Shown: positions 1 to 60,017, numbered from the stretch's first letter. The stretch: DNA of 64,000 nucleotides from Escherichia coli (GCF_009931435.1 NZ_CP043414.1), one strand, 5' to 3'. Numbers and translations are program-made. Notes: generated by a model not told the origin, from the letters alone.

Positions 1-422
1 TCAATCACGCTCATCGCCGTGGCGGTTTTGCTTACCTGCGCCAGCGAGCGGTTTAGTTGTTGGAGGGGGAAAAGTCGCGGGTCGGGAAAGGCCGAGGCAA
101 ACGGAACTACCGACGGATCGCGACTGGCCTGCAACATATCAAAAATATAGGTGTTGATATCGACTGCTTCATCTCGAGTGACTGGAATGACTGTCGCTTT
201 CGGCATTTTTATTGCCTGTGGCGCAACGTAATAACCCGATTGCGGTCGCGCGATAATATATCCCTGACTTTCGAGCAACTGATAGGCATGGCTGACAGTC
301 ATAAAGCTCATGCCAGAAAGCGCCACCTGGTCACGCAACGAAGGCAAACGATCTCCGGGTTGCCAGATACCCGACGCAATCTGCTCGCGTAATTGTTCTG
401 CAAGCTGCTGGTATTTTTTCAT
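1..422 (-). CDS. ydcR: MocR/GntR-family regulator YdcR (HTH plus aminotransferase-like domain), N-terminal part; gene continues beyond window start
   Basis: Minus-strand translation from ATG at 422-420 reads MKKYQQLAEQLREQIASGIWQPGDRLPSLRDQVALSGMSFMTVSHAYQLLE..., a GntR-type winged HTH; no stop before position 1. Listed +strand ORF 57-392 is its antisense. Confidence 0.8.
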   Translation of the reverse strand, partial: MKKYQQLAEQLREQIASGIWQPGDRLPSLRDQVALSGMSFMTVSHAYQLLESQGYIIARPQSGYYVAPQAIKMPKATVIPVTRDEAVDINTYIFDMLQASRDPSVVPFASAFPDPRLFPLQQLNRSLAQVSKTATAMSVI

Positions 423-56927: not shown

Positions 56928-58301
56928 TTATTTTAATAACCGCACCCGGCACGTTTTTCCTTTAATCTTCCCGCCCTGTAACTGTTTCCATGCTTTATGA
57001 GCAACAGCCTGACGCACCGCGACATAGACATGCGCCGGATGCACGGCGATTTTGCCAATATCTGCGCCATCAAGCCCGATATCTCCTGTCAGCGCACCTA
57101 ATACATCACCCGGGCGCATTTTGGCTTTTTTCCCGCCATCGATACATAACGTTGCCATTTCTGCTTCCAGCGGCACAATGGAACTATTAACTGGCGGCGT
57201 TTGCCAGTTAAGTTTTATCTGCAACATGTCAGAAATGATATTGGCCCGCTGTGCTTCTTCCGGGGCACAGAAACTGATCGCCAGACCGCTATTTCCTGCA
57301 CGCGCTGTACGACCGATGCGATGTACATGAACTTCAGGGTCCCACGCCAGTTCAAAGTTCACTACCAGCTCAAGCGATTTAATATCAAGACCACGCGCAG
57401 CAACATCCGTCGCGACCAGCACACGAGCGCTACCGTTAGCAAAACGTACCAGGGTCTGATCGCGGTCACGTTGCTCCAGATCGCCATGTAACGACAATGC
57501 ACTTTGCCCTATGTCATTCAGCGCGTCGCAGACAGCCTGACAATCTTTTTTGGTATTGCAAAACACCACGCAAGAGGATGGCTGATGCAAACTTAATAAC
57601 CGTTGCAACAGCGGAATTTTGCCTTTGCTGGATGTCTCATAAAATTGTTGTTCAATGGGAGGCAGAGCATCTGTTGAGTCAATTTCAATCGCCAATGGCT
57701 CGCGTTGAACTCGTCCGCTGATTGCGGTGATGGCTTCCGGCCAGGTTGCCGAAAACAGAAGCGTCTGTCGAGATGCTGGCGCAAAACGGATAACATCATC
57801 AATGGCATCGCTAAATCCCATATCCAGCATGCGATCGGCTTCATCCATCACCAGCATATTCAACGCATCCAGTGATACCGTGCCTTTTTGCAGATGGTCC
57901 AGCAAACGACCTGGGGTTGCCACGATAATATGCGGCGCATGTTGCAACGAATCACGCTGCATACCGAACGGTTGACCACCGCACAAAGTCAAAATTTTGG
58001 TATTTGGCAGAAAACGCGCCAGCCGACGCAATTCACCTGCCACCTGATCCGCCAGTTCACGCGTAGGGCACAGCACTAAAGCCTGGGTCTGAAATAGCGA
58101 CGCATCAATTTTCTGTAGCAGCCCGAGGCCAAAAGCCGCCGTTTTGCCGCTGCCGGTTTTCGCCTGCACGCGAACATCTTTTCCGGCAAGGATCGCCGGA
58201 AGCGCGGCAGCCTGCACCGGCGTCATAGTCAAATAACCCAACTCATTAAGGTTCGTGAGTTGGGCGGGAGGCAAAACATTCAGGGTAGAAAAAGCGGTCA
58301 C
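56928..58301 (-). CDS. dbpA: ATP-dependent 23S rRNA-specific RNA helicase DbpA (DEAD-box)
   Basis: 457-aa ORF with AKTGSGKT Walker A, DEAD motif (VMDEADRM), SAT and C-terminal RNA-binding domain. Confidence 0.95.
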   Translation of the reverse strand: MTAFSTLNVLPPAQLTNLNELGYLTMTPVQAAALPAILAGKDVRVQAKTGSGKTAAFGLGLLQKIDASLFQTQALVLCPTRELADQVAGELRRLARFLPNTKILTLCGGQPFGMQRDSLQHAPHIIVATPGRLLDHLQKGTVSLDALNMLVMDEADRMLDMGFSDAIDDVIRFAPASRQTLLFSATWPEAITAISGRVQREPLAIEIDSTDALPPIEQQFYETSSKGKIPLLQRLLSLHQPSSCVVFCNTKKDCQAVCDALNDIGQSALSLHGDLEQRDRDQTLVRFANGSARVLVATDVAARGLDIKSLELVVNFELAWDPEVHVHRIGRTARAGNSGLAISFCAPEEAQRANIISDMLQIKLNWQTPPVNSSIVPLEAEMATLCIDGGKKAKMRPGDVLGALTGDIGLDGADIGKIAVHPAHVYVAVRQAVAHKAWKQLQGGKIKGKTCRVRLLK

Positions 58302-58331
58302 AATCTGTTCTCGTGGTCATCGACGCAAAAA

Positions 58332-58505
58332 TTAGCAAGCGCGTATCCTCGCAGATCTACGCTCACGATGCGACAATTTAATCGGTTCTTCATCGGGTGG
58401 TGGGTCAGGCATGGGTTGCGGGCGAGGGATTGGATCGGGCACTGGAACAGGATCGCCAGGAATCGGTTCAGGGACAGGAATTTGCAAATAAATGAGTGTC
58501 GTCAT
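58332..58505 (-). CDS. Candidate small proline-rich protein (57 aa) immediately upstream of dbpA; not in ORF track
   Basis: Manual translation MTTLIYLQIPVPEPIPGDPVPVPDPIPRPQPMPDPPPDEEPIKLSHRERRSARIRAC; GGAGGG Shine-Dalgarno about 6 nt before the ATG; stop 31 nt upstream of the dbpA start. Confidence 0.4.
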   Translation of the reverse strand: MTTLIYLQIPVPEPIPGDPVPVPDPIPRPQPMPDPPPDEEPIKLSHRERRSARIRAC

Positions 58506-58562
58506 ATTTCCCTCCGGTCATTGGGTGGACTCTTAAAGGGTAGACGCTGATATATAACAGGC

Positions 58563-58684
58563 AAAAAAAAGCCGACTCATCAAAGTCGGCGTCGTACGAA
58601 TCAATTGTGCTATGCAGTAATTCAAAAAAGGAAGTAAGACAATATGGAGCGCAACGCCCATCGCTTGACGTTGCATTCACCTGC
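58563..58684 (-). ncRNA. fnrS: FnrS small RNA (FNR-activated, Hfq-dependent)
   Basis: Minus-strand GCAGGTGAATGCAACGTCAAGCGATGGGCGTTGCGCTCC...GCCGACTTTGATGAGTCGGCTTTTTTTT matches FnrS as recalled. Confidence 0.9.
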
Positions 58685-58719
58685 AAGAGAGATATTGCCC
58701 TGAATGGGTAGAGAGTTTA

Positions 58720-58733
58720 TTGACTTCGCTCAA
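58720..58733 (-). promoter_or_regulatory. FNR binding site (class II position) in the fnrS promoter
   Basis: Minus-strand TTGAG-CGAA-GTCAA (consensus TTGAT-N4-ATCAA) centred about 42 nt upstream of the fnrS 5' end. Confidence 0.6.
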
Positions 58734-58779
58734 ACTTTGCGGCGTTTTTGTATACAGATAGTAGGGAAAATTGCTGTTG

Positions 58780-59784
<1,005 letters not shown>

Positions 59785-60017
59785 TTATTTTGTAGTCTAG
59801 CCTTCTGGCCCTGTTACGCAACATCTCATCACCCCATTACCCTGAAATGATTAATAAAATTCTGTCTAAATTGAATACAAAAAGCAAAATGCTTTTCCAT
59901 ATACAAACCGTGTGAAGTGTTAAATAGCGTCTATCATTATCAGAATTATCTGATCATATGACGTGGCTTTATTGCGATCGGATAGCAACAAAAATTGATA
60001 AAAATAACGGGATCTCA

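Follow-up and report, generated by a model that had tools for sequence, protein, structure and literature searches.

YnaL, a conserved proline-rich small protein encoded between fnrS and dbpA in Escherichia coli

Genes and signals between fnrS and dbpA

The window, that is the whole stretch of DNA analysed, comprises 64,000 nucleotides of an Escherichia coli genome (NZ_CP043414.1). Between the sRNA gene fnrS and dbpA it contains a proline-rich open reading frame (ORF), identified as ynaL. This is a genuine small-protein gene, translated and conserved, that had already been annotated and published. The principal features of the locus, in window coordinates, are as follows.

56928..58301, minus strand: dbpA, encoding a DEAD-box helicase, with a GTG start at 58301 (ORF list and RefSeq)
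58309-58313, minus strand: CGAGA, the Shine-Dalgarno-like sequence of dbpA, invariant in the alignment together with the GTG
58332..58505, minus strand: ynaL coding sequence, proline-rich small protein YnaL (RefSeq WP_001296046.1, Pfam PF23677)
58510..58515, minus strand: GGAGGG, the Shine-Dalgarno sequence of ynaL, 4 nt 5' of the ATG (from the sequence)
58567..58684, minus strand: fnrS sRNA (Rfam RF01796, 134.8 bits, E = 2.8e-25)
58571-58590, minus strand: fnrS terminator hairpin, followed by a T-run (terminator scan)
58468..58686, minus strand: a mechanically called 72-aa ORF, spurious, which spans the whole of fnrS and has no RefSeq annotation

The ynaL frame opens with ATG at 58505-58503, runs for 57 codons and closes with TAA at 58334-58332. 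Its translation, MTTLIYLQIPVPEPIPGDPVPVPDPIPRPQPMPDPPPDEEPIKLSHRERRSARIRAC, is the same peptide as that given in a first-pass annotation of this DNA, whose description of a proline-rich 57-codon ORF preceded by a strong Shine-Dalgarno sequence is borne out. The same annotation placed the ORF 31 nt before dbpA on the same strand; the strand is right but the untranslated gap between the ynaL stop and the dbpA GTG is 30 nt, the larger figure being obtained when the final base of the stop is included in the count.

The RefSeq coordinates of ynaL coincide exactly with this ORF, both in K-12 and in a genome that is 100% identical over a 551-bp stretch. The 551-bp ynaL region is matched, at 95% identity or better, in 5392 of 5426 complete E. 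coli genomes and, in all the matches listed, 'protein YnaL' or 'proline-rich small protein YnaL' is annotated as ynaL between zntB/fnrS and dbpA. The Pfam entry PF23677, 'Protein YnaL-like', covers residues 1-57 of the 57 with a score of 136.9 bits against a cutoff of 27. When a YnaL profile was run against a database of 5.8 billion proteins, 241 matches were obtained; the best 120 of the 241 all carry PF23677, many of these being named YnaL, and the organisms named in the source annotations of the matches listed are Enterobacterales throughout.

Experimental work on the gene has also been published. VanOrsdel et al. (2018) located ynaL at 1409308-1409481 in K-12, with a 57-aa sequence identical to that of the window (PMC6001520). 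The order fnrS, ynaL, dbpA is likewise shared by the two strains. YnaL was seen by chromosomal SPA tagging and immunoblotting of cells grown in LB, in both exponential and stationary phase, ynaL scored positive in a tetracycline ribosome-profiling screen, and a possible ynaL-dbpA operon was raised by the same authors (PMC6001520). In a Ribo-seq study of 2023 ynaL was quantified among 'previously known sORFs', with log2 fold changes at pH 5.8 versus 7.6 of -1.31 for ribosome footprints and -2.63 for RNA (PMC10746267). The first-pass suggestion that the ORF might encode a small protein is thus upheld by RefSeq, by SPA tagging and tetracycline profiling (PMC6001520) and by Ribo-seq (PMC10746267). 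Since the gene is annotated and published, and has its own Pfam family, nothing is added here as a discovery.

The 72-aa ORF had been dismissed earlier as spurious because of its overlap with fnrS, and we agree. Its start codon is present in only 15 of 116 related loci, and across the 116 the first stop in the equivalent frame falls after anything from 14 to 100 codons. An ORF that entirely covers an sRNA gene, and of which neither the start nor the length is conserved, is best regarded as spurious. On the far side of fnrS, a 15-codon coding sequence lies at about 59777-59824 on the minus strand, 13 nt 5' of zntB, with the RefSeq label ydaN and the product name 'protein YnaN' (WP_211180494.1). 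A leader or a small ORF in its own right are both possible descriptions of it.

Conservation of the reading frame and of its neighbourhood

Conservation was assessed in 120 loci drawn from GTDB species genomes, which were anchored on a conserved fnrS pattern and so collected independently of ynaL. A proline-rich ORF follows fnrS in 79 loci, found in the Enterobacteriaceae and Erwiniaceae as well as a small number of further taxa. In most of these loci it starts 160-182 nt from the fnrS anchor, about 60 nt past the terminator, with a GGAG(G) or AGGAGG Shine-Dalgarno sequence at equivalent spacing from an ATG. The genera bearing the ORF are Escherichia, Salmonella, Citrobacter, Enterobacter, Klebsiella, Kosakonia, Leclercia, Lelliottia, Pluralibacter, Cedecea, Siccibacter, Franconibacter, Phytobacter, Trabulsiella, Buttiauxella, Mangrovibacter, Erwinia, Pantoea, Mixta, Winslowiella and Izhakiella. 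The ORF is missing from Yersinia, Serratia, Edwardsiella, Brenneria, Arsenophonus, Dickeya and others.

Within the protein, two segments require separate mention.

58383..58481, minus strand: proline-rich PxP core, residues 9-41, under protein-level selection (79-locus codon alignment)
58392..58406, minus strand: DPPPD, residues 34-38, a strong-stalling polyproline motif (from the sequence)

In the 79-locus codon alignment, the entropies of the core at codon positions 1, 2 and 3 are 0.57, 0.53 and 1.59, and its Nei-Gojobori pN/pS is 0.37 in the ynaL frame compared with 1.73 and 2.01 in the shifted frames. The same picture is obtained from 32 sequences of a single C-terminal type (type A, see below), where 25 core codons have entropies of 0.23, 0.21 and 1.31 and not one of the 25 third positions is invariant. 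Invariant prolines use all four CCN codons, one column containing CCG 22 times, CCT 20, CCC 19 and CCA 17, and core residues other than proline are conserved too. A DNA-level tandem repeat underlying the PxP periodicity was looked for in ynaL and none was found, so the periodicity is kept at the level of the protein. By the measure of these alignments, the amino-acid sequence of the YnaL core is shown to be preserved by selection in both Enterobacteriaceae and Erwiniaceae, and the maintenance of the frame, judged from sequence comparison, is far beyond chance. The conservation check that had been proposed for the frame therefore comes out in its favour, the frame being kept across genera with a coding signature in both entropy and pN/pS.

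These results bear directly on the possibility that ynaL is translated but functionless, a product of pervasive intergenic translation from a fortuitous Shine-Dalgarno sequence. No function of YnaL, and no experiment assigning it a phenotype, partner or cellular location, was found in the literature searched, and natural losses are seen in the form of a deletion in Kluyvera and a frameshift in Leclercia adecarboxylata, all of which would suit a dispensable ORF. However, the purifying selection on the core is strong, the Shine-Dalgarno sequence and ATG are kept across genera, and the gene is present in 5392 of the 5426 E. coli genomes. Nor can the conservation be put down to an overlapping non-coding constraint on the core, which the third-position wobble contradicts. 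We consider a functionless ORF barely credible.

Some loci depart from the common pattern. The frameshift in Leclercia adecarboxylata NCTC13032 falls in the ynaL core, and in two Kluyvera loci the proline-rich core is deleted, with dbpA found some 226-229 nt from the fnrS anchor. Seven loci from several genera have an early stop, the protein ending ...PIK(L/M)S(H)R with the basic tail gone. Divergent proline-rich ORFs are found 250-520 nt after fnrS in Pectobacterium zantedeschiae and three Sodalis-like loci, and one record of such an ORF is labelled 'Martelella alba'. The divergent ORFs in Pectobacterium and Sodalis-like taxa suggest either an older origin with subsequent losses or a mislabelled record.

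The proteins fall into two types according to their C-termini, and these correspond to different gene orders.

Type A: fnrS> ynaL> dbpA> <ttcA
Type B: fnrS> ynaL> <ttcA, with dbpA past ttcA where it can be located (e.g. Winslowiella, Erwinia oleae)
Without the ORF: zntB> fnrS> <ttcA, with ttcA ending directly after fnrS

In type A, which includes E. coli, Salmonella, Citrobacter, Enterobacter and others, dbpA follows at +366..393 and the protein ends ...DPPPDEEPIK[LM]SHRxRRSARIRAC. In type B, represented by 42 loci, it ends ...DPPxDPDPxPIIDPPPH[MRV], and a strong hairpin terminator 0-14 nt past the stop is followed by the convergent ttcA gene. A local rearrangement is apparent between the two, since Erwiniaceae have the order fnrS> ynaL> <ttcA dbpA> as against the fnrS> ynaL> dbpA> <ttcA of the window. 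In none of the 42 type-B loci is there a same-strand gene downstream of ynaL. This matters for another proposal of the first-pass annotation, that the ORF could be a leader coupling dbpA expression to translation of a polyproline stretch: the ancestral and most widespread form of ynaL, having no such gene to its 3' side, cannot be a dbpA leader.

Expression signals and the region upstream of dbpA

A candidate promoter for ynaL can be proposed from a phylogenetic footprint.

58537..58564, minus strand: candidate ynaL promoter, TTGCCT (58559-58564), a 16-nt spacer and TACCCT (58537-58542)

The footprint, CTAnnCTTAAAG, is a -10-like TAnnnT of which the T, A and T are invariant in about 70 loci, and it lies some 30 nt 5' of the ATG. 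The hexamer is TACCCT in E. coli and TATGCT in Erwiniaceae. A TTGCC(T/A) sequence is found 16-18 nt further 5', abutting the fnrS T-tract, the whole reading TTGCCA-N16-18-TA(T/C)GCT in Erwiniaceae. The candidate falls below what a simple consensus scan picks up and, since such a scan of 58200-58800 returned no sigma-70 promoter, it is footprints of this kind that define the promoters proposed here, both for ynaL and, below, for dbpA. The Cappable-seq supplements contain no coordinates matching either of them, and ynaL, dbpA and fnrS are all absent from the supplements of Adams 2021.

The arrangement could alternatively be read as a module of fnrS and ynaL, in which ynaL owes most of its expression to transcription running through the fnrS terminator, or to processing of a longer fnrS transcript, and YnaL is an FNR-dependent anaerobic protein functionally tied to the sRNA. 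The proximity of the two genes lends this some appeal, since the ORF lies about 60 nt past the terminator in most ORF-bearing loci, in two families and with or without dbpA, and it would also account for the empty promoter scan. Equally, the terminator is a strong one, with an 8-bp stem containing 5 G-C pairs followed by 8 T, a -10-like footprint is conserved between it and the Shine-Dalgarno sequence, and YnaL-SPA is present in both growth phases in ordinary LB, as opposed to conditions of anaerobic fnrS induction (PMC6001520). Intestinirhabdus has an insert of about 1.1 kb between fnrS and ynaL, yet its ORF is intact. Many genera, such as Yersinia, Serratia, Edwardsiella and Dickeya, have fnrS without the ORF, and the linkage is in part an ascertainment effect, because the loci were anchored on fnrS. 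The footprint, the strong terminator, the detection in LB and the Intestinirhabdus insert favour an independent weak promoter over read-through, and we regard the fnrS module as unlikely, while acknowledging that the linkage may leave room for some co-transcription by terminator read-through. Thus ynaL is probably under its own weak promoter, situated in the short spacer that separates its ATG from the fnrS terminator.

The 3' end of ynaL evolves quite differently from the core. The features concerned are these.

58335..58382, minus strand: tail codons 42-57 (IKLSHRERRSARIRAC), constrained at the nucleotide rather than the protein level (alignment)
58338..58358, minus strand: near-invariant block AGATCTGCGAGGATACGCGC(C/T), also given as AGATCTGCGAGGATACGCGCC (35 dbpA-linked loci)
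58345-58353, minus strand: putative extended -10 of dbpA, TGCGAGGAT, followed by a GC-rich discriminator (footprint)
58370..58384, minus strand: a further near-invariant block, CGATTAAATTGTCGC, spanning codons P41-H46 and shared by every dbpA-linked locus, those of Kluyvera among them

Over the 19 tail codons from P41, the 32 type-A sequences have entropies of 0.39, 0.45 and 0.40 at the three codon positions, and 9 of the 19 third positions are invariant. The block at 58338-58358, which contains a GATC (Dam) site, shows no codon-3 wobble across the 35 dbpA-linked loci, and wobble is likewise absent from the block at 58370-58384. In consensus form the two conserved blocks are CGATTAA(A/T)(A/T)TGTCGC and AGATCTG(C/A)GAGGATACGCGCC. 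Both are kept where the ORF stops earlier, as in Kosakonia, Pseudescherichia and E. cloacae, and both are also kept in Kluyvera, which is without the proline-rich core but has dbpA. In species that have dbpA apart from ynaL, a homologous TGnTAnnnT plus CGCGCC motif is found about 35 nt 5' of dbpA, as in the following.

Winslowiella: TCTGCTAAACTACGCGCC
Buttiauxella: TCTGCTAACATGCGCGCC
Siccibacter: TCTGCTAGCATACGCG
Franconibacter: TGCGAGGATACGCGC
Erwinia: TCTGCTACACT and TCTGTTACACT

Going by these alignments, the block at 58338-58358 is probably dbpA's own promoter, which in E. coli lies inside ynaL codons 51-56, and the block at 58370-58384 is possibly an upstream element of it. The hexamer of the putative extended -10, GAGGAT, is poor, and an alternative reading would make the invariant block a site at which a protein or an RNA binds. 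That it might hold a mimic of h90 of 23S rRNA is a conjecture which we set aside.

The history of the region might then be pictured as one in which, in the clade of Escherichia, Salmonella, Citrobacter and Enterobacter, dbpA came to sit directly 3' of ynaL. The ynaL ORF of this clade would run through the promoter region of dbpA, and dbpA would probably use this internal promoter for its transcription whether or not ynaL is translated. Because of this overlap, the basic tail PIKLSHRERRSARIRAC appears to be a by-product rather than a conserved functional part of the protein.

YnaL as a protein and as a possible leader

The 74 unique YnaL homologues are 38-84 aa long, with a median of about 50. 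Proline makes up 33% of their residues, and their net charge averages -3. The chain is acidic, with prolines at alternate positions, the consensus being ...SDPVPTDPVPVPDPIPRPQPMPDPPP... AlphaFold renders residues 1-45 as extended, without secondary structure, and only the E. coli-type tail forms a helix, a short one; the pTM is 0.25. A search of the PDB with the YnaL family profile produced chance matches only, with E values of at least 0.086. The core would therefore be better pictured, at least provisionally, as an extended polyproline-II-like rod without a globular fold.

Several possible relationships were considered and rejected. A signal peptide or membrane helix is not compatible with the N-termini of type-B proteins, which are short, variable and non-hydrophobic. 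The polyproline region of TonB (PF16031) resembles YnaL in its alternating acidic X-Pro repeats and its expected rigid polyproline-II conformation, but YnaL has no membrane anchor, signal sequence or TonB C-terminal domain, and the profile scores (11 bits for PF16031 against a cutoff of 33, and 20.8 for NF008084 against 315) indicate a similarity of composition only. Oncocin, Bac7 and apidaecin are proline-rich antimicrobial peptides, strongly cationic, whose target is DnaK or the exit tunnel of the ribosome. The PRPQP of YnaL resembles short PxP- or PRP-rich antimicrobial peptides, but the family is acidic, with its mean net charge of -3, which argues against a cationic peptide of this sort.

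Polyproline motifs like DPPPD need EF-P for their translation and, by analogy, synthesis of YnaL probably depends on EF-P. DPPP is present in 67 of the 74 unique homologues. Since PPP also occurs in 74% of composition-matched shuffles, the presence of DPPP alone is no evidence of a function in stalling. In the portion of supplement text available from an EF-P/EfpL ribosome-profiling study, ynaL was not found, the PPI motif of dbpA being all that appears.

It is with this motif in mind that the leader proposal deserves fuller discussion. In its most developed form, translation of ynaL would control dbpA in the Escherichia clade through ribosome pausing at DPPPD, a control point sensitive to EF-P and to peptidyl-transferase performance, acting through translational coupling, through coupling of transcription and translation or by blocking access to the internal promoter. 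A polyproline sensor has conceptual appeal here, because the helicase DbpA acts on 23S rRNA, where it remodels the peptidyl-transferase centre. There is precedent in mgtL and mgtP of Salmonella, leader ORFs rich in proline codons, and CadC carries a regulatory polyproline motif that is EF-P-dependent. Like these, ynaL is short, contains consecutive proline codons, is followed in E. coli by a same-strand gene and would be expected to show EF-P-sensitive translation. The distance to dbpA is just 30 nt, the start of dbpA is weak (GTG, with the Shine-Dalgarno-like CGAGA), and a ynaL-dbpA operon has been suggested (PMC6001520).

At the ynaL stop the window strain also has a terminator-like element, a weak hairpin and then TAATTTTTGC (58335-58352, minus strand), which might be taken as a point in favour of such control. 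However, this strain and K-12 are not identical near the stop, where a few nucleotides differ (for example TAATTTTTGCG compared with TAACTTTGCG) and, since TAACTTTGCG is the usual sequence in E. coli, K-12 included, the T-run is strain-specific.

Comparative data weigh against the leader more generally. Beyond the 42 homologous loci without a same-strand gene downstream, the distance from the ynaL stop to dbpA is variable, being 27-30 nt in most species, 57-62 nt in seven and 19-23 nt in two, while in K. oxytoca ynaL overlaps dbpA by 50 nt. Kluyvera has lost the ORF but retains dbpA and the upstream block, and the Leclercia adecarboxylata ORF is frameshifted. The last 17 or so codons overlap the promoter-like block that is also found 5' of separate dbpA genes.

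Nor is there support from RNA structure. RNAalifold, applied to 17 type-A sequences from the ynaL 3' end to dbpA +45, gave a consensus of -6.2 kcal/mol with 0 compensatory pairs, and the E. coli ynaL-dbpA junction folds no better than shuffled controls (z = -0.17), so that neither a conserved nor an unusually stable structure is evident. An Rfam search of the ynaL and dbpA-upstream region at E<=10 retrieved nothing beyond fnrS. The consensus fold does pair GUCGCA (58369-58374) with UGUGAC (58297-58302), forming 6 bp over the dbpA GUG start; as both segments are invariant, there is no covariation to speak for or against the pairing.

The comparison with known systems is similarly unfavourable. 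Unlike mgtL and mgtP, ynaL has no alternative terminator and antiterminator structure that could be found, and beyond the Escherichia clade its homologues mostly lack a gene to their 3' side. In a family of proline-codon attenuators, every member would be expected to sit in the 5' leader of a regulated gene, on one transcript with it, and to have mutually exclusive RNA structures selected by the position of the ribosome, and ynaL shows neither. The conservation of non-proline residues in the core is needless for a pure sensor of proline codons and, with 57 codons, a strong Shine-Dalgarno sequence and a stable, detectable product, ynaL is more like a protein gene than a leader of that kind.

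The type-B loci, the variable gap, Kluyvera, the promoter-like tail and the lack of a conserved RNA structure thus argue against a leader coupling dbpA to polyproline translation, and control of dbpA by ynaL translation, even within the Escherichia clade, seems to us quite improbable. A variant in which ynaL has become fused onto the dbpA promoter region, with ribosomes that translate ynaL, and pause at DPPPD under poor EF-P or peptidyl-transferase activity, modulating dbpA in a feedback sensor of ribosome competence, is a long shot, and only a slim chance can be given to any lineage-specific influence of ynaL on dbpA in that clade. Were the variant true, a sensor of the catalytic competence of the ribosome would have been layered on an older, trans-acting small protein.

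We instead favour, with a probability of around 70%, the reading of ynaL as an independent translated gene for a small cytoplasmic protein whose core acts in trans and whose E. coli-type tail arises incidentally, through overlap with the promoter region of dbpA. The core would most likely serve as a binding peptide for a partner, action in trans being what we infer by default.

The idea of a polyproline leader for a helicase of ribosome assembly is an attractive one, but it is weakened by the comparative evidence. The part of YnaL likely to function as protein is narrowed to the acidic PxP core, and the tail of the E. coli protein is apparently read out of the dbpA promoter region. A clean deletion of ynaL, or C-terminal tagging of the kind already published, would disturb the invariant block 5' of dbpA, and this overlap is to be reckoned with in the design of YnaL tags, ynaL deletions and dbpA promoter constructs.
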